Below the pieces are notes generated by a model. It did no database searches. It saw nothing but the letters and a program-made list of their open reading frames with translations, and was not told the origin of the DNA. The translations under genes were made by a program, and so were the position numbers. This document shows, one piece after another, positions 4,421 through 39,830 of a stretch of 41,272 bases of DNA; positions within the stretch are counted from its first letter, which is position 1, and every line of letters starts with the position of its first letter. This DNA comes from Licmophora abbreviata (taxonomy: Eukaryota), in assembly GCA_900291995.1 (NCBI GenBank), contig OLMU01000948.1, forward strand, positions 1 to 41,272. The letters run 5' to 3'.

Positions 4421-5462
4421 TCACATGATAGGACCTTCCGACCGACACCCAAAGATTCCCCACGCAAAGACACCGTGATTCCTTTGAATATCAACCCGAC
4501 TCGTTAGCGACTCCATCCACTTGGCCAAGTATGCCTCTTCGACTCCTTCGTTGAGCATATCGTCACGATGCTTTTCGATCTGATCAATCATACTCTGAAA
4601 GTAGTACTCCAAATGGGGAGAAAAGTCACTGAACGACGCGTTGTGAAAGCCGGCATCCTTGAGAAGGTCAAGATACTCACTGGGTCGTGCCATCTTAGTG
4701 GTGGCATTCCGGTCGGTAAAGTCCTTGAGGACCTTTTCGTCGGCTCCATCGGCACCCATAATGTCGGTAAAGCAGAACGACGCTCCGGGCTTCATGACGC
4801 GCTGAAGGTCTTTGAAGAGCTGAGGCTTATCGGCAGCATGACAAAGAACCTCGCATGACATGACATGAGTAAACTTGTCGGTCCATTCCTGCGGCAATCC
4901 TTCATTGAAATTGCAGAGCTTCACGTCCACCAGTTCACCGACTCCCATGCGCGCCGCTTCCGCGAGGTTCATTTTGTTCTGTTCCGGCGAAATGTTGGCT
5001 CCAATGACCTTGCACCCGAATCGTTCGGCCAGCTCATGCGACAATCCACCATGTCCGCTGCCGAGGTCCAAGACGAGACTGTCCTTGGTGACGGGACGGA
5101 ACCAGTCGAGGGTGGTGAGCAAGCGCTTGTTGGTTTCCTTGCTGCTCTCGTACACGGTATCAGTCGGCTTGACGAAGCATCCATAGTGAATATCGAATCC
5201 TCCTCCGCCCTGCGCGAGTGAAAATAGGACCGAGGGTGAGGGACGAGTGTGTCGCTCTAGGTTCAGTGTCGTCTACTGCGCGTTGCAACTAGATCTACTA
5301 GGATTTCGCGAAAAGTGGAGAGTTGAAACACATTGGACGTACCATGACGTATTTGTAAAAGATTCGAGCGTGGGCTTCGTCATACTGCTCAACAACCTTG
5401 TCGGCGACCTCGGTCTTCTCGAACTGCTGGTCTTTGAAGTCTCCAGTGGTAGAAGTTGTCAT
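4421..5462 (-). CDS. Class I SAM-dependent methyltransferase, sarcosine/dimethylglycine-MT-like group, candidate MTHB S-methyltransferase; 2 exons (5462-5343, 5209-4421), ~302 aa
   Basis: Exon 1 reads MTTSTTGDFKDQQFEKTEVADKVVEQYDEAHARIFYKYVM. A phase-0 GTACGT...CAG intron (5342-5210) joins it in frame to GGGGFDIHYG. SAM motif I VLDLGSGHGG, then NISPEQN, SCEVLCHA and MKPGASFCFTD. Substrate is inferred only. Confidence 0.85.
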
Positions 5463-5583
5463 GGTACAATGGTGCTAGTCGTCGTGTCGTACGTCTCGAT
5501 CGCTCAGTCTGTGAGTGTTCACCAAGATCAGACTTGAAATGGCGCCATCGTCATTTTTCCGGGCACCGACTTCCCCGCCACTC

Positions 5584-5595
5584 TGACGTACGTCA
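5584..5595. promoter_or_regulatory. Perfect palindrome TGACGTACGTCA (two inverted TGACGT bZIP-type sites) in the divergent promoter
   Basis: Seen directly in the ~350-bp intergenic region between the ATGs at 5462(-) and 5815(+). Confidence 0.35.
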
Positions 5596-5814
5596 TCCAC
5601 AACGCACGTACTTCTCGGCCAATCGGAATTCAGCATTGCCGTGTAGACCTCGCTGTAGAAAATGTACCACACGCAACAGATTGACTTTTCTTCCCGCCAA
5701 ACTGAGTTTGCTTCACAAAATGGCGACCTCGAAGACACCAAGACGCCACAGCAGTCCACAACTTGTACAACGTTCTACAATCAGACCAGTTTACTCCCTC
5801 CCAAGTCCTTCATC

Positions 5815-8800
5815 ATGCTTCGCGTCGAGTCTAACGCGGACATGCTCAATGCCCCTGACCACAGCAACCCTTCCAAGGTTGCGGAATTCACCGTTCCAGA
5901 ACTCGGAGGCGGCTACATCGTGGTGAACCTCTACGGCGAGTACCTGGTTTCCGTGGGTCGTGTCGATGTGGGGGTTCTCGGCGAAACCTGGACGGACGCA
6001 GAGGCCGCTCTCGACATGCTCTGCTACAGGGCCAACAATATGAACGACAAGTGCATTGTAACTGATCTCAAGGTCGGCGGCTGCGGCGTACTCCTCTACT
6101 TTTCGGCCAGCGCACTCGATACCCCCTCCAACCGACGTCGTCTGGCTTCAGCGCTTGTCAGGGAGCTCCCCTCCTTTGTCAGCACCAACATTCTATGTAT
6201 TCCTGGAGAGGGATGCACCATGACGGACATGCTCAACATCTACAAGGCGAACGAGGCTCTGACGAACTTCCCCAGGAGTCCGGCAAGAAACTCAGACGAC
6301 GAAGATGAAAACAAGAGCGACAAAGATCTGGAACGGACCACCAAAATGGTTCGCAGTACATCCTTTTCTCATGCCTCTGCTGAGTTTGAATTTCCAGTTC
6401 CATCGGCCATGATCTCTGCCGAGTCTCTCCGTGACGATCCCCTCGTCAAGGCTGCAGCGCTCAGTGTCTTCGGTTCCATTTCTACCCTTACCAAGGCAAA
6501 GCAGTGGGCCATTCCCAAGATCGTATTGATGGGATTTTCTCAACTTGCTCGAGAGTTATTCTGGCTACTTGCCAAGGAAGGCATCGATGTCTTTGTCGCT
6601 GATCCTAAGTCGGATTTCGTGGGCACGAAGATTCCCGACAAGAACATTGTCGCCTGGGACAAGGCGCCTTCGATCGGCTGCGACGTGCTAGTCTTTTGCT
6701 CGTCCGACTGTCCGGTACTATCGGAAACTATCGTAGAGTCGTTACATTGTCGCTCAGTCGTAAGTGCGTCTGACTTCTTCCTGCCTCGTGCGGAAGAGGA
6801 AGTGGAGCATGTACGCATCGCGTTGGAGAGGCAGAGCATTTTCGAGTTTGCCGACGGACTCTGTGATCTCGGAGCCATCGCCAAGGGGTACTCACTGTCC
6901 AACTCCAAGCATGCATTCTCCAAGAAAGAAATTATGGAACTTGGTGCACGTGTTATGCACAAGAGACTCCATCTCGATGGGATCGTCAAGCAGTATGACA
7001 CGGAAGACAAGCGAAAGTTCTATTCCATGGTGCTGGCGGACGAGGTGGACGAGATTGGAGGACTTAAGCTGGGCTTGGGTACCATTATCCACAATTCATC
7101 TGATAGCATGACCCAGTGGATGTGGACCCGAGCTCGAAGTCTTTGCCCTGCTTTTCGTACCTTGAATACGGCGGGTCCCAAGAAGGACATTCACTACATA
7201 GACCTTGGTGCAGGAAACGGTTCCGCCGCGCGGTGGATCTGCAAGCAAGACACACACATCCACGTTTGGTGTATCAATATCAGTCCTCAGCAAAATGCAG
7301 AGAATCGCCATTTAAGTGACGAACAAGGTCTCGGGGGACAGGTCACTGTCGAGACAACTAGCTTTGAGCAGCTGCCGTCTGAGTACAGCTCTTTGTTCGA
7401 TGGTTGCATTTCGCAAGACGCATTCATCCACGCGTTTAGCAAGCTTCATGCGTTGTCCGAAGCATTCCGTGTCACTAAGGGTGGCGGGTGGCTGATGGTG
7501 TCGGACTTGATGTGTGGCGAGAAGCAAGATACTCTGGAGCTGCAGTCTTTTGCCGAGAAGAACAACGTCCAGAACTGGGTGACGCCATCCCAGTATGTGT
7601 CGTTGGCGGAAGAGGCAGGCTGGTCAGAAGTGCAGTTTATCGACTGCACCTCACAGATTAAGGTGTCGCTGCAGCACTTACTCAACAAAATCAAAAACAT
7701 CATCTCGTCAGGAGCACACAAAGGGCTCAATCTCAAGCTCTTGCAGACACATCGACTCAGTCTCGCCAACCGTATTGGACAGATCGATCGGGGTATCTTC
7801 AAATGGGGCATTATTGCCGCACGGAGGCCATACGATGTTCTCTTTATGACGACGGCACCAGCAACGCCAGATAATCATCCCATGATGTCGTATTCAACGA
7901 ACAACATCGATGGAAGTCTCAAGTTTGGCACAGATGTCGTGGTGCTCAATATCAAGGACCAGATGCCGCGATCCAAAATCATGGAGTTGCCAAGTACGAC
8001 TCGCCTTATTGTGACCATGTCGGCAGGTCTGGATCACATCGACATGGATGCCGCCGAGGAGCGAGGCATTCGTGTTCGTCGAGCTGCTCGATACGCTATT
8101 GTCAAATCCGTTGCAGACTACCTCTTGTCCAATATTATTTTTGGACTCCGAAATGGCTACCAGAATGTCGGTAAGTGAAGAAACTGCAGTTTGCGTTTGT
8201 GCCTTTTAGGAAAATGGCTTGTAATTTGCTCACCCGCCTTGCCAACGTACCACGCTTTAAGGTGTTCCGTTTCCCGGAAAATTGTGGGACTTATCGTGGA
8301 ACTCAGACGGAGTGGATCTCGACCGAAGCAAGATCGGCTTCATTGGTATGGGTGCAATTGCCCAAGAAACATGTCGTCGTATTCGAGCATTGTCTACCGA
8401 ATGTGAGCTCGTTTACCACATTCCGGAAGGAATCAGGTCCAGGTTCGAAGAGGGGACGTATCGAATGTCGCATGTCGGCATTGCGGACTTGTACAGTACG
8501 TGCGATGTTGTCATCCCTCTGGTGCCGCTCACTCCGCAAACGACGAATCTAGTCGACTATGCCGCCTTTACTATGATGAAAAAGACTTGCATTTTCATCA
8601 ACATGGCGCGTGGTATGGTTGTGGATACGGCTGGAATGCTGCGTGCTCTCAAGGAAGGGGTCGTGCGTCATGCTATTCTTGACACGACGGAACCGGAACC
8701 GTTGCCTGAGGACCACGAGCTGTGGACAATGCGGAATTGTACGATCACTCCTCACTTCGCTACCAATACTACTTATGTCCGAAAGGAGCTAGTTGAGGAC

Positions 8801-9526
8801 ATTCCAAACGAGATTGAAGATACGCTAGACGAACGAGGTATTCTGCGTCTTGAAGAAGAGCGCTTGCGAAAGGAACTTAGTGAGGCGTACCGCATAACTC
8901 GCGATTTTGGCATGGATGAGCTTGTGTGGAACCATATTTCCGTTCTGTTGTCGGACGGAAGCTACCTCATCACACCAGGAAGCCGTATGTTTGATGATAT
9001 TGCGCCGCAGGACCTGGTCAAGAGTTCCGGTAACGTTACGGCCGACATAATTCATGATGCGGTCTACAAGGCTCGGGACGACGTCAAGGCGATTGTCCAC
9101 CTGCATACCCCTGCAACGGTGGCAATCTCGTGTTTAGAGATGGGATTTGTTCCGCTTGCTCAGGAAGCCGCTCCCTTCGTCGGCCGCGTTGTGCGCCATC
9201 CCTGGCACGGTGTTTCCAACGATTGGGAGGAGCAGGCTCTGCTCGGCGATGCCGTGAAGAGCAAGAACGTGAACACGCTACTAATGGAAAACCACGGATT
9301 CTGCACGTTCGGAAAGACTCTAGGCGAGGCGTGGGTGCTGGCTTACTACTTCGATAAGGCATGTCAGACCCAGCTGAACTGCCTCCAGACCGGTGTAAAG
9401 ATCAACTTCCCCGACGAGAAGGTCCTCCAGCACGCAGCAGAACAGTCCGTTCTTCCAGAGTTTCTGCCCGGTAATTGTGAATGGGAAGCTCTCCGCAAAA
9501 TGTTGACACGAAAATCGCGTCGTTAG
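5815..9526 (+). CDS. Four-domain fusion: degenerate Glu/Leu/Phe/Val dehydrogenase-like + SAM methyltransferase + D-isomer 2-hydroxyacid dehydrogenase + class II aldolase/adducin; 2 exons (5815-8170, 8262-9526), ~1206 aa
   Basis: ORFs 5662..8178 and 8282..9526 are joined in frame by a phase-1 intron G|GTAAGT...TTTAAG|GT (8171-8261), giving QNVGVPFPGKLWD. Motifs: ANNMNDK..LKVGGCG and VLMGFSQLA (ELFV-like); IDLGAGNG, NISPQQN, QDAFIH (MT); SAGLDHID, GFIGMGAIA, INMARG, EPEP, TPHFA (2-HADH); WNHIS, HLHTP, LMENHG (aldolase II). Start could be the upstream in-frame ATG at 5662. Confidence 0.88.
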
Positions 9527-19114: not shown

Positions 19115-21346
19115 CTAGTCATCTTTCTCAAGCGCCTCCAAATGTGGGAACGCCTTGAATGCACCGACTGCCGTAATGGTCACAATCAGCCCCATCGAAA
19201 CGAAAATATGGTTTAGCAAAGTTTCGATACCACCAAGGCCGCACCACGTAATGAGAACGTCGCCGACCGAGCGACCAAGATTCCCAGCCTCGGTTGCCAG
19301 AAGTCCAACATTGAGGAATCCCCTAGCCCAACTCGTTGGTATTGTTTTCGACAGCAAACTCATATTCGGCCCCTCTAGAGCGTTTGTACCGACGAAGATT
19401 ATTACACTGGCGGCAATGTATTGTAGTATCGAGTAGTGGTCGGCACTTCCATAGTTGACAATACACCACACGCCAACCGCCATCACAAGAAGGGTCACCA
19501 TGATGAGTTCCCGGTCGTCGTGACGCCGACTAAAGTAAGCCACCATTAGGTTTGCCGGAAACATGAGCAGGCCCAAGATTGCTAGATAAATTCCAGTTTC
19601 GGTTGCACCCCAATCAAAATAGAATCCCGTCAGTGTTGCAGTTGAGCTCAGACAGACCTCCAGCACCATCTTGAGAACAAAGCAGATGAGTAACGTCGCC
19701 ATCACGGGGATGTTTTTCCATAGCGGCGGCGAGGCTGATTCTGCCCGATCGACTCCGTTGGTCGTTGACAACAGCGCCTTCCTTTCGCCGACGAGCTCGA
19801 CGTCCATATCCTTTGGCGCTGCGTTGTGTGTAGGAGGATCTTGAAAGTAAGCGACTAAAGCGACAAGGTAAATCATCCAGAGGGTAAACATGAGCCAGCC
19901 TGAAGCGTTCTCGACACTCAAGTACGTATCGCCGGGAGGAAGAAAGTCTAGCAGGGCCGCCAGAGCAGGACCCGCTGCCATACCGAGCGAGCCCGCAGTA
20001 ACGAAAGCCGCTGACGCTGCTGTCCGCTCATCCCTTGAGTACGAGTCTGCAATATATCGTCGATTGATTGACCGACAGCTACCGAAGCCGATCAGAAGAC
20101 GACCGATTAAAACCAACGTAAAACTTTGGAATGGAAGTCCGAGAGCGTACAATACGTTCCCAAGCAGTGCACTGGAAGCCGCGAAGAACAGTGCAGCCTT
20201 GTAGGAGTAACTAGTCCACCAGCTGTAGAGAAACGTGGATGCCAAAGCGGCGATCGGCGTCATCCCAATGACCAGTCCAGCAAGAGTCTCGTTACCCCCC
20301 AGCTTGGCAGCGTAGGCACCACTCGTGGGCGCCGCTATGTAGTAATTCGTCAAGAATAGAAATGTACTCATCAAGTTGAGAAAGTTTGATAGACGCGACG
20401 GCTTGGAGCGCGGCAGCGGTGCCATATCCTCTAGAAGAAACGTATCACTCGGCTGGTGCTCCAGAACCATGGCTGGGGCGGCCAAGAAACTGACCAAGTT
20501 GGACGACTCGTACAGGCGACGTCGCGCCGCGTCAATCCGAAATAAGACAGGCTCTTCATCGGGTGAAGCACTGGCTTGCCAGTCTTCAAGGTTGTCCAGC
20601 GTCGTTGTTCGAGTGTGTCCTTTGCTAGAGCTCGATAGAGCCTGTTTCCATTCATCGTCCAGTGACGGACCCACCAAATCGGGCGCAGTGTTATTTCTTC
20701 GGTGCATGCCGCCGCCGATAACAATATCTGAACCACTATTCATCTGCAGAGCGTCTTCGCACTTTCGTAGTTCTGCCAATGAGTGTTGCAGGGTCGTAAC
20801 GAGTGCCCCGATGCCCTCGTAGTGGAGTAGCTGTTTTAAGTGTGAGTCTTGCTGGCTCTCAAAGTAATTCTCTGATAGATACTGACCCGAGAGCTTGTTT
20901 GCCGTGTAAATTTTGTCGTGCTTCTTTAGAATCTTTCGTACTCCCGTCACCGTTAGTTCGACGAAGCGAATGAGGCGTACCACATCGTCTCCGATGTCTC
21001 GGTAAGCTCGTAAAAGCTCCCCAATCTGAGCACGTACAGGTACCATGGTCTCCGCTCCATTCTGAATTCCAGTTGCGACGAGCTCTTTGACTTCTGAGAC
21101 ACTGGTGCGCGAATCTTGCCTCAACAAGGATATCTTCGACGCAAGTCTGCCTTGTTCCTGAAGAAAGAACAAGACGGCTTTTTCTATGTCGATGTCAAGA
21201 AGATGAATGAATTCTCGCTCGCGAAACGCATCCGACTCGTCCGCGTTTTGGAACTCGAGAATCCTCTTCAACCTTGTGTAATCCAGATAGTACTCCTTCC
21301 ATGGACCGTATTCTAATGCCATAAGGCGCTTTCCAAAGTGCACCAT
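19115..21346 (-). CDS. SPX-MFS protein (vacuolar phosphate transporter, VPT/PHT5-like), copy 1, intact
   Basis: MVHFGKRL..YLDYTRLKR and TGVRKILKKHDK SPX motifs, then a multi-TM MFS domain (TNYYIAAPT, IGRLLIGFGS, INRRYIAD, EGPNMSLLSK). Confidence 0.9.
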   Translation of the reverse strand: MVHFGKRLMALEYGPWKEYYLDYTRLKRILEFQNADESDAFREREFIHLLDIDIEKAVLFFLQEQGRLASKISLLRQDSRTSVSEVKELVATGIQNGAETMVPVRAQIGELLRAYRDIGDDVVRLIRFVELTVTGVRKILKKHDKIYTANKLSGQYLSENYFESQQDSHLKQLLHYEGIGALVTTLQHSLAELRKCEDALQMNSGSDIVIGGGMHRRNNTAPDLVGPSLDDEWKQALSSSSKGHTRTTTLDNLEDWQASASPDEEPVLFRIDAARRRLYESSNLVSFLAAPAMVLEHQPSDTFLLEDMAPLPRSKPSRLSNFLNLMSTFLFLTNYYIAAPTSGAYAAKLGGNETLAGLVIGMTPIAALASTFLYSWWTSYSYKAALFFAASSALLGNVLYALGLPFQSFTLVLIGRLLIGFGSCRSINRRYIADSYSRDERTAASAAFVTAGSLGMAAGPALAALLDFLPPGDTYLSVENASGWLMFTLWMIYLVALVAYFQDPPTHNAAPKDMDVELVGERKALLSTTNGVDRAESASPPLWKNIPVMATLLICFVLKMVLEVCLSSTATLTGFYFDWGATETGIYLAILGLLMFPANLMVAYFSRRHDDRELIMVTLLVMAVGVWCIVNYGSADHYSILQYIAASVIIFVGTNALEGPNMSLLSKTIPTSWARGFLNVGLLATEAGNLGRSVGDVLITWCGLGGIETLLNHIFVSMGLIVTITAVGAFKAFPHLEALEKDD

Positions 21347-21761
21347 GGGAATCGGATATTTTACCGTGTTGTCCAAAGTATCTTCATTGTGATTCTCGCC
21401 GCGGCGAATCCGCGAGCGAATCTTTGAAAAAGATTTCGCGCGACGACAGTGTGGTCTGGCCGCCCGATGACAACTCGACTGCCTCAACTTTACTCGACTT
21501 TCTCACTCATCAAATCTCTCTCACTCGATAGCCCGACAAAAGTGTTGCTAGATGACTTCGTACGAATAGAACGCCTCCAGGATAATAACTCCAATCTCCT
21601 GTTTTAGTGTTTGCTACTTGCTACTGGCAGTATCGATTGCACAGCGGGAGCAGAACGCTGTCCGAACACTGACTTCCGAGCGAAAAAAATGTAACAGGCC
21701 ATAGCACGGCGGAAGCTGAGTGAAAGCAAATGTAGCAGAGCTGTTTCTTCAATCTCCGTTC

Positions 21762-23992
21762 CTAGTCGTCCTTATCGTCTTGCGGTTCCAACGATGGATA
21801 CACTTCGTACGTTGCCACAACAGTCACTCCCACAAGTATTCCCAGAGATATAAACATGTGATTCAGCAACTTTCCGATACCGCTCAAGCCGCACCAAGTT
21901 ATGAACACATCGCCTGTCGCCCGTCCAAGGGTACCTGCTTCAGTGGATAACAGGCCCACATTGAAAAGACCCTTCGCCCAACTCTTTGGTATCGTCTTGG
22001 ACAACAACGACATATTGGGCCCCTCCACTGCGTTCGCGCCGACAAAGACGACAATCCCAAAGAATATATACTGAGCCAGCGAGTATGAGTCGCATGCCCG
22101 TAGTCCACGATTCCCCACAATCCGACAAGCAACAAGATCAGAGTGTATATGATGAGCTCACGGTCTTCGTATATCCTACTGTAGTAGGCAACCAATAGAT
22201 TGGCAGGGAACATGAGAAGTCCAAGCACAGCCAAGTACAGTCCGGATGCCTGGGGCCCCCAGTTGAAGTAGAACGACGTCAGCGTTGCGGTGGAGCTCAG
22301 TGCACATTCCAATGCAAGCTTGATGACAAAGTAGACCAAAAGCGTTGCGATCACGGGAATATTCTGCCAGAGGGGTCGCGACACGCGTTCAATTTGCTCC
22401 TGCCTACCACCGGTCGACAACAAGCCCATGCTTTCTCCGGTTAGTTCAATATCGGCAGTCTCCGTTCTAGATTCCATCAATTCATCGTGTTTGGGCGGAT
22501 CTTGAAAGAAAACTACCAATGCGAAAAGGTATACAAGCCAGACCATAGACATGATCCATCCAGAGGCGTTTTCGGCACTCCAGTATGTGCTGCCTGATGG
22601 TGACAAGTCGAGCAATGCAGCCATCGCCGGTCCTGCGCTCATGCCGAGTGCACCGGCCGTCACGAATGCCGCTGACGCTGCCGTACGGTCCTGCCTCGAG
22701 AATGAATCAGCAATGTATCGACGGTTGATCGATCGGGCGCTACCGAACCCATTCAGGAGCCGACCGATTGTGACCAACGTGAGGCTGCGATACGGAAGGC
22801 CGAGTGCATAGAGAATGTTTCCAATAACGGAACAAGCCGATGCGAAGACCAATGCCGCCTTATAGGAGCGACTCGTCCACCAGCTATATAGTATTGTAGA
22901 CACTAGTGCGGCAATCGGGGTCATGCCAATAATGATGCCGGACAATGCTTCGTGACCGCCCAGTTTGGCGGCGTACGCTCCACTTGTGGGAGCGACGATA
23001 TAGTAGTTCGTCATGTACAAGAACGTACTCAGGAGATTCAACAAGCTGGAAATGGATGATACTTCCGGACGACAATAAGGCAGAATCTCCGATAAATCAT
23101 CCTCACTAGTACTTTGGTCCATCATGGCGGAAGCCGCCAGCAAGCTGACGAAACCGGAAGATTCGCGCAGGCGTCGTCGAGCCGCATCAATCTTGAATAG
23201 CACGGACTCTGCAAGTGCACTCACGTTTTCGTCCCAATATTCTGGACCTTCTGTGCTCGCTTTTCGGCTCCGACTGGGCCCTGGTGTAAGTCTAACTGGC
23301 TCAAGTGACGACGGGCCGACCAAGTTTGGTTCCGTCATTGTCCGACGATGTCGATTGACGCCGGCTGCGTCTTTCGGGACGCTGTTGAACAAGATGTGTT
23401 CAATTACCTTCAGTTCCAAGAAAGCCTCCTGTAGTGATGCGACAAGGGCACCAACACCTTCATAATGGAAAAGCTGTCTCAGATGCGAGTCCTCAGTATT
23501 GTGAAAGTGATCCGACAGATATCGATCCAATAGCTTGTTTCCTTTGAAGCGTTTGTCATGTTTCTTGAGGATCTTTCGCAAACCTGTTACTGTCAGCTCG
23601 ACAAAACGAACCAGATGGACGATAGTCTCTCCGACATCCTTGTAGGAGTGCGCCAGCTCCTGTAGCCGCCTTCGAACTGCCGCTTGCTGGGCGTCATTGC
23701 TTCTGTTCCCAACAACATCCTGTGCATCCATTGCGCACCTACGTTCGTCATCTCGCAAGACCGAGAGCGTCTTGGCAATATGTCCTTGTATTTGTAGAAA
23801 GAACAAGACTGATTTTTCAATTTCTTGGTTCAGTTGCCTCTCAAACTCACGTTCCCGGCGCGCAGCAGGTAGCTTGGCCGTAATGCTACCGTCTGTGTTT
23901 TCGAGAACTCTTTTTAGTCGGCCGTAATCTAGATAGGAGGACTGCCATGGCTCATGCTGAAGCGCCAAGAGACGCTTTCCGAACTGTACCAT
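21762..23992 (-). CDS. SPX-MFS protein, tandem copy 2, with an apparent 1-nt frameshift at ~22097-22099 (sequencing error or pseudogenising lesion)
   Basis: MVQFGKRL..YLDYGRLKR..TGLRKILKKHDK. Homology to copy 1 switches from ORF 21899..23992 to ORF 21762..22118 at DYG/ACDSYS. Confidence 0.85.
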
Positions 23993-24370
23993 AGCGCAAG
24001 AGGGAGTACTTGGTGAGCGCTGCCGTGAATGATCTCAATCAATGTGCCCTGCCGCAGGTTTCCCGTGGAGGAAACAATGAGCCTTAACGAAAAAGGGCGG
24101 TCGTGTGTGGTCGTCATCAGTGTGGTCTAGCAGTCCTTGCTCCTTGAATCGAATCAATCCCTTGCACTCTGTTACGCCGCCACCCACCACTGCCACGCGT
24201 GAAGATGAAAGAATCTTGAACGAATCTTCAATAGTCACGAGTACCGCGTCACCACGAGTCTTGGATATGAGATGGATTAGGCCCATAACCCTCTTCACAG
24301 CCGCACAAATGACAAAAATGAAAAGAACAAATTCATCAGAATCTTTGCCTGTATCCCTCCCACAAAGACA

Positions 24371-32733: not shown

Positions 32734-35690
32734 CTAGGCTTGGCAGCTCCAGCAAATGTCGTCTCGATCGTTGCCTGCTGGCCCGCTCGACTGCACCGAG
32801 GTCTTATTCACCGTGTACTGTATCGCATTCACGGCTGGTTTGGTTCGAAGGTAGTACATACCCGTCTATGGTTTCGCATTGATAGCGACGCGACGAGATG
32901 AGACGATGATGAGAATCTGCGCTCCTGTTCTGCTTTACGGTCACCCGACACGCGAACGTACCTTAAGACCCTTTTTCCAAGCGTAAAAGTGCATCGATGT
33001 CAATCGCTCGACCGTTGGATCGGCAATGAAAAGATTTAGGCTCTGGCTTTGATCTACAAATCTCCCTCGATCGGCAGCCATGTCAATAATGTCTTTCATT
33101 TTGATCTCCCACACCGTCCTGTACAGCTCCTTAAGTCGTTTGGGAATACATTCGATATTAGCTACCGATCCTCCATCGCGCATCAGCTGGTTCCGGACGT
33201 CAGGGGTCCAAAGACCTCGGTCCGTCAAATCTTGGAGCAGGTGAGGATTAGCCATGATGAACTCGCCCGCTTTGACGCGACGCAGATAGAGGTTCGAGCT
33301 AAAGGGTTCGAAGCACTCGTTGACCCCCAGAATCTGAGACGTCGACGCCGTTGGCATAGGAGCGACGAGCAGCGAGTTCCGGAGCCCTCCGATCTTGATG
33401 CGTTCTCGTAGTCGATCCCAGTCGTATCCCCCATTCTTGTATGTAGATGCGTAGTGCTGAGGCGGATTCAACGTGACACCCCCTCGGCACTGTCGTTGAC
33501 TGGGAGTCTCATCGTCGGATATTCCCCAAAGATCAAACTGCAATTTTCCTTCGCTGGCAGGACTACCAGCAAATGTGTCATATGGACCTTTCATCTCCGC
33601 TAGCTCAAGACTAGCCTCGAGAGCTGCATGGTATATCGTTTCAAAGATGGCTTCATTTAATAGCTTTGCTTCGTTCGACGTAAACGGCAAGCCTAGCCTT
33701 AGAAACGCATCCGCGAGTCCAGATACCCCAAGCCCAATTGGTCGGTGGCGACGATTCGAACTTTCCGCCTCAGGTACGGGGTAGCGATTGACGTCAATCA
33801 CTTTGTTAAGATTTCGGGTCAATATCTTGGTGGCGCAATGCAAAGCGTCATGGTCAAAATATGCCATCCCGGACGACGGGTTAGCAGAACCAAAAGGCCC
33901 GCGACGCGATACAACAAATCTCGATAGACAGCTGAGCAGCGCGAAGCAAGAAAAGGTGAGCAACACCGACCTCGCATTTTGTGCGCCAGCAACGTCAACA
34001 CAGTCTCAGTTGAACTTACAGGCTCGCGAGATTGCAGACGGCGACCTCGTCTCGGGATGTGTACTGAATGATTTCTGTGCAAAGATTGCTGCTCTGGATC
34101 GTCCCGAGATTCATCTGATTGCTTTTGGCATTGCATGCGTCCTTATATAGCATATAGGGAGTCCCCGTTTCAATCTGCGCGTCGAGAATGGCGCCCCAGA
34201 CGTCACGGGCTCGTACTTGTCGAACGAAACGCCCGTCCTGCTCGTACTGCTCATACAGATCCCGAAACTCTTCTCCATATTTCTCAGACAAACCGGGACA
34301 TTGGTGGGGACACATAAGGCTCCACATGCCGTCCTCTTGAACCCTTTGCATAAACAAATCGGGGATGAACAAACCATAGAATAGATCCCTCGCCCTCTGT
34401 TCGTCTTTCCCATGATTCTTTTTGAGATTCAATACATCAATAATGTCAGCGTGCCACGGTTCGACGTAGACTGCAAATGCTCCAGGACGCTTTCCACCGC
34501 CTTGGTCGACATATCTAGAAGTAACATCGAATACGCGGAGCATCGGGACCAGTCCGTTGGAAACCCCTCTTGTCCCTTTGATAATCGTCCCTCGGGCACG
34601 AATGTTGTGCACCGAAAGACCGATCCCGCCGGCGGCCTTGGAAATCACGGCACAGCGCTTCAGTGTATCGTAAATACCATTGATGGAATCTTCCGACATT
34701 TGCACCAAGAAGCAACTACTAAGCTGAGGGTGTGTCGTTCCAGAATGAAAGAGCGTTGGGCTGGCATGCGTAAAGTATCCCTGACTCATCATGTCATATG
34801 TCTCAAATGCGGCCTCCAACTGTGCGTCCTCTGATGTGCTATCATCAGGGTTACAACAATGAATTCCAAGGGCGACTCTCATAAACAGATATTGCGGTCG
34901 TTCAACTGGAGTTCCATCGTCGGTCTTGAGGAGATAAGCTCGCTCCAACGTCTTGTACCCAAAGTAGGTCATGTTCATATCTCGTTCGTGCCGAATACGT
35001 TCATCGATTTCCGGGCCTCGTCTGCTTACTAGTTCGGCTAGTCGGGAGTGAATGAAGCCTTTCGCATTGTCGCACAATATCTCCATCGCGCTCGAAAAGG
35101 TATCAGGAGTCGCCTTTCTCAACTGAGAAATGCATATTCGTGCCGCTAACCGTGCGTAATCTGGATGTTGTGTCGACATGGACGCCGACGTCTCGGCTGC
35201 CAAGACATCGATCTCCCCCGTTGTCACATTAGGATAAATGCCACGCAGTACCGATTCCGCCAGTCCCTTTACCGATAAGAAACGACTGTCCAAGCCGTCG
35301 GACAGCTTTTGCAGCCTGGACACGATCTGTGCAACGAGGAAAGAGGAAAGACGTTTCAATACATTGAGCAAGGCTATCCTTAGTGGACAACAGAAAAAAT
35401 TGTGCTGTCCCGTTTTTTACCTTGACTTCGTTGAGAGCTTCTCGTCGCCCATCGCGCTTGGTAATAAGGAAGTTGCCAGTACGTCTCCCCTGCTCTGCAT
35501 CAAGAATCCCTTCGGGCCCATTTAACAACGAAGAGCCCTCGGATACTTCTGAGATCTGCAAAGGCGAAACTGATCCTCCCCTCGTCAAATGGGGCCCGGA
35601 ATCTGAAGGTGACGGTGCCGTAGCATCTGCTGAACGAACACGAACTGCTAGCACAAGCAAAAAGCGAAGAAAAAGGTATCCGATCGGCAT
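32734..35690 (-). CDS. RNR1: Class Ia ribonucleoside-diphosphate reductase large subunit with an N-terminal signal-like extension; 4 exons (35690-35421, 35326-34020, 33931-32962, 32865-32734)
   Basis: ATP cone [66 protein letters not shown] and a C-terminal CWSCQA redox pair. Introns preserve the frame. Confidence 0.95.
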
Positions 35691-37027: not shown

Positions 37028-39553
37028 CTAGGGTTCGTTTCTTACTACTTCTACTTCCAGGGCGTCTTTGCCGACTGGAGCCGTGCTACGTGCATCGCCT
37101 TCGTTCGACGGCAGGCAATTCTCGAGTACAACTTCCTTCATTACTCGGTATGGCGCGGTTCTCTCAGTCCATAGCTCAAACTGACCCACGCCCTGCTCCC
37201 ACAACATTTCCGATCCCCGAACGACCTCACATCCTGCCTTTTCGGCTTGTAATAGCAGCTTCGTATGGAAAGGTTTATAGTTCACATCAAAGACAATGGG
37301 CAGAGAGGCTCTTTCGGATGAAATCATCCAGTCTGGTAGCTCAAACTCTGCGGCTGCCGGCAATGTACTTATTACGACACGCACAGCACTGCCTGACTCT
37401 CGCAGTACACTTGCCAGTGACTGGTCGTTTTCACTTTCAAGGTCCGACACGACGGTTCCCCCGAAACTTTCCGCCAGACCAGCTGCTTTCGCCGGAGTGC
37501 GATTGAAGTAGATCTGGTCCAATCCCAGCTTTTCGGCGGCAAAGGCTGCTGCTCTCGCCGTTCCACCAGCTCCCAGAATTAGCGCACAGTCACCGGGAGA
37601 CGTCAGTCCAAGCTTGCGTTTCAACGGATTGTAGATCCCTTTCCAGTCGGTGTTGTCGCCGTAGATAACGCGCTCGAAATTCTCGGTGCCGACTTCCTCT
37701 CTTACTACCAACGTGTTGACGCTCCCAATTTCCTTGGCAGCGTGGCTCATGACGTCCACGAATGGAATGATAGACTGCTTGTGGGGAATCGTTACACTGC
37801 ACCCACCGAAATTGTGTGCTCTGAAGAAGTCTGATTCGACAAACTCCTTGACGGTTTCAACGTCGGCGCGGTAGTACTCATGTGGCAGCCGCGCCGCTGC
37901 AAAAGCCGAGCCATGCATCTGGGGACTCACAGAGTAGGCAATATTGTGTCCGAGAATCGCGTATCGTCTCGGTTGCATGATCTTTGTCAGCAGGCGTGTC
38001 GTCATGATCTCGTTCGATGTCATCTGGCCAGGCGCTGCCTTGAAAGGCAGAGACTCATGCGTAACGGGGGTAAAGGGGATATTTATCACTCGCGAAAACT
38101 GGCCAACTTCGCCTAGAATGAGCGAAATGTTCGGAATCACCGGATCGCCGTCTTCTGCCGCCAAACTAGAAGTAATGATAGCAGCTTCGTACGCCATGCG
38201 ATCTTGCTCATCGTCGGTGATCGTAAGGACCACTTTCGCACCATGTGCTCGACCGTTCAGTGTGCACTGCTGAAAGAGCACGACGGCGTCTTCGAGAGTG
38301 ACCACTTCTCCCACTACATGGTGACTGCCCAGTATCTGGCTCGAATATCGCGTCTCTGCGAGATGAAGAAGATCACTCGTTTTCTTATAGTCCCAGGCAC
38401 TCTCTACGTCCAAAACCTCCACCCCTGATCTTAGTCCCCACTTCAGAAGATCAAACATTTGTTCAATTCCGGCTTGGTCGTCGGGATATGTTCCTGCTTG
38501 GTTCATTGTTCGCACGGTGTACACCGTAGGCATCGCGTCATCGATAATCTTGCCTCCAAACGGAAGCCCAGGAGCTCTAACAGCAAAGGGACGGCAAAAC
38601 CTACGCAGTAGCTGTTGTCCATAGATCAAGTCAAAACGGTTGTCCCTGCAGTCAAGAAGGTCCGCTCGGTACTCCATCGCATCGACATCGCGGCACATTT
38701 GTTGAACGTATGGCTCGACTTGCGTCACGTCGGGGAAGCTGAGCGAAAGGAAGAATGTGTGCTTTCCCATGGTGAGATGAGCTGTATTGGTAGTTTGTGT
38801 CTCGTCGCCCGGAATGGCTGGCTGTAGAGTTGCTCGCGCTACCAACCGACTGAGCTCCCATTGTATGTGCGACCAATCGTTCGACTCAGAATCAGTTGGC
38901 AATCCCTCGCCACGGATACAAAGCTCGTAATCTGAATAGCTAACAAGCACGTCCTCTTCCAGATTCATTTTGAGCTTTTTATCCGATTCGCTCATAACGG
39001 CCTCGTCTGGGTGTACATTCACAAAGATACTCAGCAACCCGGCGTCGTAGAGCGCTTTGGCGTATTTCGAGTGGTCGTCGCCACCTGCAAAGTCGACAAC
39101 AAGAACGCTCGGGTATTTGACCTTTGAGGTCTCAATGTCGCGCAACAGTGCGTCAACAGATTCGACATCGGATACGTTAATCACTCCTTCAGTGTTCCCT
39201 GATGCATCCAACTCGTTTCTCAGGGATTCTGCCAATCGAGGGATCTCTTGTCCAGAACCCGAGACTCCCAGCAAGACGATAGGCTTGGAGTAGCGACTGG
39301 ACTGAAACATGTTTCTTTCTAAACCGTCCTCAATAGCTTTTGACGCAGTTGACATTCTTCGAGAGTCGATTTTTGGTTCGGATCGACCGATTTGATCATT
39401 TCGAGCTGAACGAGGATTGGAACTAAGTTTCCCACCAAATCTGAGCGGAAAACCGGAGAAGGCTCGGACTTGCGTCGACAGCAGAGAAATGAACAGCACA
39501 AGGGTCGCCAACAAAGACCGCATTCGTCTCGATAAAACCATTGTCACGTGCAT
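37028..39553 (-). CDS. Plastid-targeted type I 3-dehydroquinate dehydratase / shikimate dehydrogenase with a degenerate shikimate-kinase-like N-terminal region
   Basis: Signal ending VRA|FS. DHQase motifs [31 protein letters not shown] motifs [50 protein letters not shown]. Start may be the ATG at 39553 or 39541. Confidence 0.9.
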
Positions 39554-39830
39554 TTCGGTTGTTGCGCCGGCGCCGACACCAAGATCCGGTGTGTGATGGC
39601 GGACAAGAGATGAAGATTTCGAGATTTCGAGATTTTAGATTTTAGATTTGCGCGCGAAAACTTCAAAACGGGACTTGCCACCAACACACGTACGCACGCA
39701 CGTGCGAAGTCGATGTCTACAATCTTGTGATCCATTGCAATCCACGTTGAACGTCGGGAATGGTGTCGTAAGCTACTTTGCTGCACATCACACACTGGAC
39801 TAGAGCTAATACAAACCAGCCTACAGAGAA

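Follow-up and report, generated by a model that had tools for sequence, protein, structure and literature searches.

Here, we describe a spliced gene encoding four fused domains on contig OLMU01000948.1 of the diatom Licmophora abbreviata (assembly GCA_900291995.1), of which positions 1 to 41,272 of the forward strand, the whole 41,272-nucleotide stretch, were analysed (hereafter the window). The gene lies head to head with a gene for DSYE, a methyltransferase of the transamination route to dimethylsulfoniopropionate (DMSP). We lean slightly towards the view that the two act together in that route, the four-domain protein providing both a reductase for 4-methylthio-2-oxobutyrate (MTOB) and an oxidative decarboxylase for 4-dimethylsulfonio-2-hydroxybutyrate (DMSHB). 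The adjacency to DSYE is the strongest evidence for the link to DMSP, and it is joined by the conservation of the motifs of three of the four domains and by the structural likeness of the last domain to known oxidative decarboxylases.

DMSP, from which dimethylsulfide is formed, is one of the major sulfur compounds of the sea. For the algal transamination route, genes are known only for the methyltransferase step (DSYB, TpMMT and DSYE). The last step of algal DMSP synthesis is described as the work of an oxidative decarboxylase, preceded by that of an NADPH-linked reductase (PMC5395565), and knowledge of the decarboxylase step was stated in 2024 to be still lacking (PMC11306096). A 2026 review, in its accessible portion, lists only methyltransferases and the bacterial enzyme DsyGD for this route. 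In the full-text literature of PMC and bioRxiv, we found no paper on the four-domain protein or on an algal gene for an MTOB reductase or DMSHB decarboxylase, and the gene adjoining DSYE goes unmentioned in the main text and seven supplement files of PMC11306096 (the neighbouring accessions and the word "aldolase" were looked for; supplementary PDFs lay outside this set). The pathway and the families of the single domains are known already; new are the way in which the domains are combined and the enzymes that we propose them to be. A dehydrogenase and a NovR/TqaM-like domain adjoining DSYE make a concrete candidate for the two missing steps, one that can be tested with existing assays.

In the proposed scheme, the D-2-hydroxyacid dehydrogenase domain would convert MTOB to D-4-methylthio-2-hydroxybutyrate (D-MTHB), and MTHB would be S-methylated to DMSHB by DSYE, by the internal methyltransferase domain or by both. 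DMSP would then arise from DMSHB by oxidative decarboxylation with O2, carried out by the C-terminal aldolase-fold domain at a metal site with three His like that of NovR and TqaM. The N-terminal domain would be a relic of an amino-acid dehydrogenase, probably kept as a scaffold or ligand-binding module, and since it appears inactive in this lineage, MTOB would be supplied by an aminotransferase or by methionine salvage. The fusion of a D-specific dehydrogenase to a member of a group acting on 2R-hydroxy acids would be chemically coherent.

Gene structure and the DSYE neighbourhood

Two long open frames lie on the forward strand at 5659..8178 and 8261..9526, the first of them ending in an in-frame TGA at 8176-8178, inside the predicted intron. 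Spliced together, 5815-8170 and 8262-9526 amount to 3621 nt, corresponding to 1206 codons plus the stop, with no internal stop, and alignment of the homologues places their N-termini at the ATG at 5815 and not at the upstream ATG at 5662 (Table 1). Pfam searches of the exon products return Methyltransf_11/31, 2-Hacid_dh, 2-Hacid_dh_C and Aldolase_II. The intron falls within the 2-hydroxyacid dehydrogenase, and this division of one domain argues for a single gene.

Table 1. Positions in the window of the four-domain gene, its domains and the neighbouring DSYE gene
Feature	Position	Strand	Remarks
DSYE orthologue, 302 aa	4421..5462	-	exon 1 5462..5343, intron 5342..5210, exon 2 5209..4424, stop 4423..4421
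Intergenic region between divergent start codons, 352 bp	5463..5814	.	presumed shared promoter
Exon 1, four-domain gene	5815..8170	+	ATG at 5815; last base is the first of a split codon; donor GT 8171-8172
Intron, 91 nt, GT..AG, phase 1	8171..8261	+	GT 8171-8172, AG 8260-8261; homologues colinear across the junction
Exon 2, four-domain gene	8262..9526	+	stop codon 9524-9526; open frame 8261..9526
N-terminal domain, residues 1-385	5815..6969	+	Leu/Phe-dehydrogenase-like fold, catalytic positions replaced, K79 retained
SAM-dependent methyltransferase, residues ~394-618	6994..7668	+	Pfam Methyltransf_11/31 at exon-1 residues 447-604
D-isomer-specific 2-hydroxyacid dehydrogenase	7891..8833 (7891-8170 + 8262-8833)	+	both Pfam domains, intron-split
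Class II aldolase/adducin-fold domain, candidate non-haem iron oxidative decarboxylase	8846..9517	+	Pfam Aldolase_II, three conserved His

The homologues bear on the same question. One tblastn segment spans the whole protein at each of two metagenome loci, L001 and L004, where it lies within unbroken open reading frames (ORFs) of 1244 and 1246 codons, and a single alignment at 63% identity covers residues 114-1205 in P0043, a transcriptome-derived protein of the MMETSP data set. At two further loci (L005 and L006), the tblastn match is interrupted at positions other than that of the intron in the window, which suggests lineage-specific introns. The alternative that two separate, unspliced genes are present (5815-8178 and one downstream) could appeal to the stop codon within the intron and to database models, which are often split or partial, as in Fragilariopsis cylindrus, where the copy is annotated in two pieces, the partial proteins OEU16655.1 and OEU16656.1. 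Such an arrangement would, however, sever the dehydrogenase between its catalytic and NAD-binding parts, whereas the canonical GT..AG borders restore a frame colinear with the homologues; moreover, the ORFs at L001 and L004 are continuous and the transcriptome protein covers all three downstream domains. We therefore give the two-gene artefact next to no credence and regard the fusion as a real single spliced diatom gene, confirmed by comparison with its homologues, on which the predicted 8170/8262 junction also rests. The sequence-only reading of this DNA had proposed just such an ORF of about 1206 aa with a 91-nt intron, and had warned that annotation by ORFs only would split it; the open joined coding sequence, the colinear homologues and the unbroken frames bear out the former, and the F. 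cylindrus entries the latter.

The DSYE encoded next to the gene is of clade E and is 75.6% identical over 295 of its 302 aa to KAG7362955.1 (P0191) of Nitzschia inconspicua, a match to a ratified enzyme that lies above the minima of 40% identity and 70% coverage used in PMC11306096. KAG7362955.1 and OEU16654.1 of F. cylindrus belong to DSYE clade E and are active as MTHB S-methyltransferases, DMSHB decarboxylase activity having gone undetected in them; the methyltransferase activity of the diatom clade E proteins was seen in two hosts (PMC11306096, Table 1). Ruegeria pomeroyi DSS-3 served as a host in that work on account of its inability to convert DMSHB to DMSP. Among the related loci with upstream DNA, three of four carry DSYE immediately upstream of the four-domain gene, divergently at L001 and L004 and in tandem at L005; L002 and L006 have no upstream DNA and are not part of this count. 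The pairing is thus conserved in two orientations, though the four-domain proteins of these relatives are only about 50-77% identical. In F. cylindrus, adjacency is inferred from the numbering, as the accessions of DSYE (OEU16654) and of the fusion fragments (OEU16655 and OEU16656) are consecutive. Further, eight additional pairs of DSYE and four-domain proteins, including P0242/P0148, apparently share one contig each, to judge from equal lengths of the longest contig, which is no more than suggestive. Pfam annotation of the window revealed no other pathway gene in the flanks. An alignment of DSYE, compared with the genomes of bacteria and archaea in order to reach dsyGD and its putative reductase, found no relative there.

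Some features of these neighbourhoods are noted in their own right. At L003, which holds a more distant relative, the divergent neighbour is a pyrroline-5-carboxylate reductase of proline synthesis (L003:2113-3213 (-)), with a major facilitator superfamily (MFS) transporter beyond it (L003:265-1881 (+)), a hint that the genes around it have to do with osmolytes. At L005, a fragment of a class IV aminotransferase (branched-chain/D-amino-acid type, L005:70-963 (-), 32 bits) lies ~3 kb upstream of DSYE; it occurs as a single instance and could supply MTOB. A putative 2-oxoglutarate-Fe(II) oxygenase gene (L004:2999-3925 (-)) directly adjoins DSYE at L004. Finally, P0198 and P0043 both derive from MMETSP1066, labelled Coscinodiscus wailesii, and the DSYE there shares a 90%-identity cluster with that of Nitzschia inconspicua. 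For a centric diatom this is surprising, and the culture may have been mislabelled or mixed.

Domains of the encoded protein

Exon 1 has 29 relatives among the 5.8 billion protein clusters searched, and 14 of them are 1145-1272 aa long with an identical Pfam set. The same architecture is found in 14 full-length homologues at 44-71% identity, plus three with 21-29% identity in the N-domain. Named members of the family are F. cylindrus and metagenome-assembled genomes of Bacillariaceae, while the named sources of aldolase-domain fragments include Cyclophora tenuis, Cyclotella meneghiniana and the parmalean Tetraparma gracilis. Identity to the window protein differs by domain, from 21-60% in the N-domain, the least conserved and fastest-evolving part, to 49-90% in the aldolase domain, which is the most conserved and reaches 75-90% among diatom-type homologues. 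The motif columns of the S-adenosylmethionine (SAM), dehydrogenase and aldolase-fold domains were scored in 17 full-length homologues and checked against alignments with glyoxylate reductase and NovR; to judge from these columns, the methyltransferase, dehydrogenase and aldolase-fold domains look catalytically intact. Three Pfam domains, together with the fold and profile matches of the N-domain, uphold the four-domain architecture as it had been read from the letters alone.

The dehydrogenase shows both parts expected of a D-isomer-specific 2-hydroxyacid dehydrogenase, namely the catalytic domain (PF00389, exon-1 residues 706-769, 38 bits) and the NAD-binding part (PF02826, 2-Hacid_dh_C, exon-2 residues 14-166, 141 bits). 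In alignments with PDB sequences, R902, E931 and H950 stand at the columns of the catalytic Arg/Glu/His of glyoxylate/hydroxypyruvate reductases, and they are retained in 16/17 homologues, P0237 being the exception. The domain shares both Pfam domains and the Arg/Glu/His columns with these reductases (E down to 1e-46 with a family profile), but it differs from them in being embedded in a fusion and in scoring under every NCBIfam equivalog cut-off. P0237 itself is a distant four-domain relative of 1183 aa in which the triad now reads Gly/Asp/Gln, while its methyltransferase motif is intact, as are all three His in the aldolase domain. Set beside the N-domain of the window protein, it makes it seem that different lineages have degraded different domains.

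The C-terminal domain matches Aldolase_II (PF00596) over exon-2 residues 204-371 with 113.7 bits, and H1065 and H1067 (the H-x-H motif) as well as H1130 are retained in 17/17 homologues. Ranked by sequence against the PDB, its nearest entries are adducin and the uncharacterised Pseudomonas protein 3ocr, followed by 4xxf, deposited as a fuculose-phosphate aldolase, and by an entry named "Decarboxylase NovR" (E 2.6e-11). The curated models for sugar-phosphate enzymes are unmatched, with scores far below their cut-offs for fucA (25.5 vs 400), MtnB (23.4 vs 137) and AraD (18.5 vs 257), and RhaD is likewise far. We rejected an identity as the methionine salvage enzyme MtnB on this score and on the structural distance to its homologue APIP given below.

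The structure model of this domain has a predicted local distance difference test score (pLDDT) of 93.2, and its structural neighbours were collected with Foldseek and VIA-align, the family structures giving Z scores of 22-28. Highest are 3ocr (Z 27.7) and NovR (Z 27.5; root-mean-square deviation 2.0 over 222 residues, and the highest query template modelling (TM) score, 0.88), followed by TqaM and pyruvic oxime dioxygenase (POD), both at Z 26.0, and pyridine-dicarboxylate decarboxylase at Z 25.1. FucA of Escherichia coli (Z ~22-23), AraD (Z 20.7), RhaD (Z 18.4) and APIP (Z 18.1) rank lower. By Z score, the model is thus nearer to NovR, TqaM and POD, which are O2-using non-haem iron enzymes, than to FucA, AraD and APIP.

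NovR/CloR are three-His non-haem iron enzymes that carry out O2-dependent oxidative decarboxylation of a mandelate-type 2-hydroxy acid to the acid that is shorter by one carbon (PMC13111500). TqaM shares this fold and likewise has an iron site of three His, at which the carboxylate and 2-hydroxyl of the substrate bind the metal; it consumes one O2 and removes CO2, and is restricted to 2R substrates, including (R)-3-phenyllactate (PMC13351049). In formal terms, the step from DMSHB to DMSP is this very reaction. The window domain shares the fold and the three-His site with NovR/CloR and TqaM, but only 20-26% identity, and the known enzymes are stand-alone proteins of bacterial or fungal secondary metabolism with aromatic or beta-amino acids as substrates, in contrast to the sulfonium proposed here. 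On the strength of the structure model and the three His, we consider the domain a candidate oxidative decarboxylase of the NovR/TqaM-type non-haem iron group.

The N-domain is rare, being present in only 23 representatives among 1.84 billion proteins. In the window protein, neither Pfam nor NCBIfam gave any match for it, the ELFV families PF00208 and PF02812 being absent at E <= 0.01, and a single-sequence search of the PDB yielded one chance match only (E 1.1). An AlphaFold model from 26 sequences (pLDDT 85.9, predicted TM score 0.82) nevertheless has the two-domain fold of ELFV dehydrogenases, with a substrate domain and a Rossmann domain, and Foldseek ranks leucine, phenylalanine and glutamate dehydrogenases highest against it (E 4e-16, TM 0.66/0.74, ~375 columns). 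When the PDB sequences were searched with a profile of this domain only, leucine dehydrogenase ranked first and second (E 9e-4 and 3e-3); an earlier profile that included the remaining domains was dominated by them and was replaced by this one. These matches make the label "ELFV-like", under which the domain had been described from the sequence, right as to fold. Of the Pfam families named for confirmation at that stage, Methyltransf_11, 2-Hacid_dh_C and Aldolase_II were found, while ELFV_dehydrog is unmatched in the window protein.

Whether the N-domain is catalytic decides on the claim that a single polypeptide, with every domain active and the N-domain serving as methionine dehydrogenase, carries methionine all the way to DMSP. 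In its favour are the Leu/Phe dehydrogenase fold itself, the alignment of K79 with the first conserved Lys of leucine dehydrogenase, and the Asp after the second Rossmann strand, which is mostly retained among the homologues. K79 is invariant in two homologue alignments (A1 and A2), with P0237 gapped there in the table of 17 homologues. The relative P0232 (1131 aa, the same four domains) resembles an intact dehydrogenase, with a PF00208 (ELFV_dehydrog) match of 50.7 bits and canonical Lys, Asp, GxGxxG and N-x-G-G-V stretches. In the window protein, however, G91 stands where the GG-x-K motif has its Lys, and G131 where A-E-D-V-G has its Asp, both in the alignment with leucine dehydrogenase and in a MAFFT alignment that takes in distant relatives; we take the Lys and Asp of leucine dehydrogenase at these columns to be catalytic. 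The Lys is present in 1/17 homologues (P0232), and the dinucleotide loop, GxGxxG/A in canonical form, reads G240-x-S-x-x-A. The likeness to leucine and phenylalanine dehydrogenases lies in the two-domain fold and K79, with an identity of ~15%, no Pfam match and rapid evolution on the other side, and the replaced positions and degenerate loop imply that the domain is probably no longer an active methionine dehydrogenase, or any amino-acid dehydrogenase, in the window protein. We accordingly find it very improbable that one polypeptide performs all four steps. From its motifs, P0232 fits an ancestral cassette that would have started with a working amino-acid dehydrogenase, the activity having been lost in the lineage of the window.

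The internal methyltransferase is of class I by its Pfam match (Methyltransf_11 at 41.8 bits, cut-off 21.2), and 17/17 homologues retain the D-x-G-x-G-x-G SAM motif. It belongs to the sarcosine/dimethylglycine-methyltransferase-like family (NCBIfam NF041675, 69.8 bits, far under the cut-off of 550), and a search of the ESM Atlas with exon 1 returned only generic methyltransferase clusters (score 0.76). The four-domain protein is not itself a DSYE, since clade E enzymes are stand-alone proteins of ~300 aa; its methyltransferase comes from the same broad family and is 29% identical both to the neighbouring DSYE and to KAG7362955.1 (BLASTP). With a stand-alone DSYE next door, the internal domain is either redundant or differently employed. 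That it makes MTHB from a 4-mercapto-2-hydroxy acid, so that DMSP would be reached by a route bypassing methionine, strikes us as far-fetched. The same neighbour, together with the replaced residues of the N-domain, tells against the earlier assignment of each domain to one step, because it leaves the internal methyltransferase unexplained.

Weighing a role in DMSP synthesis

Several observations weigh against the proposed role of the gene and DSYE in the transamination route. There is no residue-level evidence pointing to methylthio substrates, and substrate identity is not readable from the sequences. The top sequence match of the aldolase domain, adducin, is a non-enzyme, and the best NCBIfam match of this domain is the uncharacterised PRK07044 (151.6 bits, under the family cut-off). 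When an alignment of the domain was compared with bacterial and archaeal genomes, six loci at 28-37% identity were found; the four that are annotated have neighbours without a methyltransferase, a 2-hydroxyacid dehydrogenase or a link to DMSP, the genes there coding for acyl-CoA dehydrogenase, MOSC, GntR, HAD and Fe-ADH proteins, CoA ligase, peptidases and transporters. The dehydrogenase of P0237 is without the Arg/Glu/His triad, and 3.2 kb of DNA upstream of the gene at L003 hold no DSYE. The internal methyltransferase, at 29%, falls below the 40% identity bound for DSYE (with coverage of at least 70%), and two methyltransferases are present for a route that needs one S-methylation.

Some of these points would suit an origin unrelated to DMSP, in which a glyoxylate/hydroxypyruvate reductase, a generic methyltransferase and an adducin-like non-catalytic domain have been fused and DSYE adjoins them incidentally. 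Both in the PDB and in NCBIfam, the dehydrogenase indeed matches glyoxylate/hydroxypyruvate reductases best, adducin heads the matches of the aldolase domain, and the homologues carry generic automatic annotations in public sources. An incidental neighbour is nevertheless hard to reconcile with a pairing that persists in two orientations across relatives of ~50-77% identity, and a non-catalytic domain with three His that are strictly conserved, as is the SAM motif (and, in 16/17, the Arg/Glu/His triad), and with an aldolase domain that is the most conserved part of the protein. We judge this explanation improbable.

A more serious competitor keeps the enzymes and changes the substrate. Another amino or 2-oxo acid might be turned into a D-2-hydroxy acid, methylated and shortened by one carbon, yielding another methylated osmolyte or metabolite, for example of the sulfonium or betaine type, with DSYE as the second methyltransferase and its action on MTHB as a side activity. 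The presence of two sarcosine/dimethylglycine-methyltransferase-like enzymes side by side suggests more than one methylation, the L003 gene has a proline-synthesis gene and an MFS transporter for neighbours, as would suit a role in osmolytes generally, and residue-level signs of methylthio substrates, which would speak for MTOB and DMSHB, are absent. On the other side, diatom clade E DSYE proteins were active as MTHB S-methyltransferases in two hosts (PMC11306096), the product that the D-2-hydroxyacid dehydrogenase would form from MTOB is exactly the substrate of DSYE, and no alternative product is indicated by any result. We consider a different substrate unlikely, although it retains appreciable weight.

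A close functional parallel to the proposed role in DMSP synthesis is DsyGD of Gynuella sunshinyii, a bifunctional DMSP synthase. Consecutive steps of the transamination route are fused in one polypeptide there, as is proposed for the window protein, and both have a sarcosine/dimethylglycine-methyltransferase-like domain of the DsyG/DSYE kind. Additionally, a putative MTOB reductase gene adjoins dsyGD (PMC11306096). The decarboxylase halves are unlike, since DsyD is a ureidoglycolate-lyase-like domain of PF04115 (PMC11306096) and Pfam finds no PF04115 match in either exon product of the window gene, which has a class II aldolase-fold domain instead. The window protein further differs in its fused 2-hydroxyacid dehydrogenase and dehydrogenase-like N-domain, and in being eukaryotic and spliced. 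The sequence-only reading had cited DsyGD as precedent on the understanding that DsyD is itself a class II aldolase; this was mistaken, and NovR/CloR and TqaM are the better precedents. Its general idea of a multi-enzyme for DMSP fares better, as it is supported by the conserved pairing with DSYE, which did not figure in it, whereas the version with all four steps in one protein is very improbable.

It is, to us, an evenly balanced proposition that the pair represents a conserved two-gene diatom DMSP locus, encoding the two enzymes long missing in algae, the reductase for MTOB and the oxidative decarboxylase for DMSHB, the latter being the first oxygenase of the NovR/TqaM type to act on a sulfonium. 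If true, the locus would provide new marker genes for diatom DMSP production and extend a recently recognised group of oxygenases to a new class of substrate.

Other genes in the window

Away from the DSYE locus, three further observations were made, all on the reverse strand. Two tandem genes (19115-21502 (-) and 21899-24034 (-)) each combine a sub-threshold SPX domain (24-26 bits against 27.8) with a following MFS transporter domain and are probably phosphate-related transporters. The large subunit of ribonucleotide reductase (32941-35416 (-)) extends over two adjacent frames, 32941-34005 and 34016-35416, and the break between them may reflect a short intron or a shift of frame. Finally, a bifunctional 3-dehydroquinase/shikimate dehydrogenase (37028-39634 (-)) carries an N-terminal extension of ~300 aa without a Pfam match.

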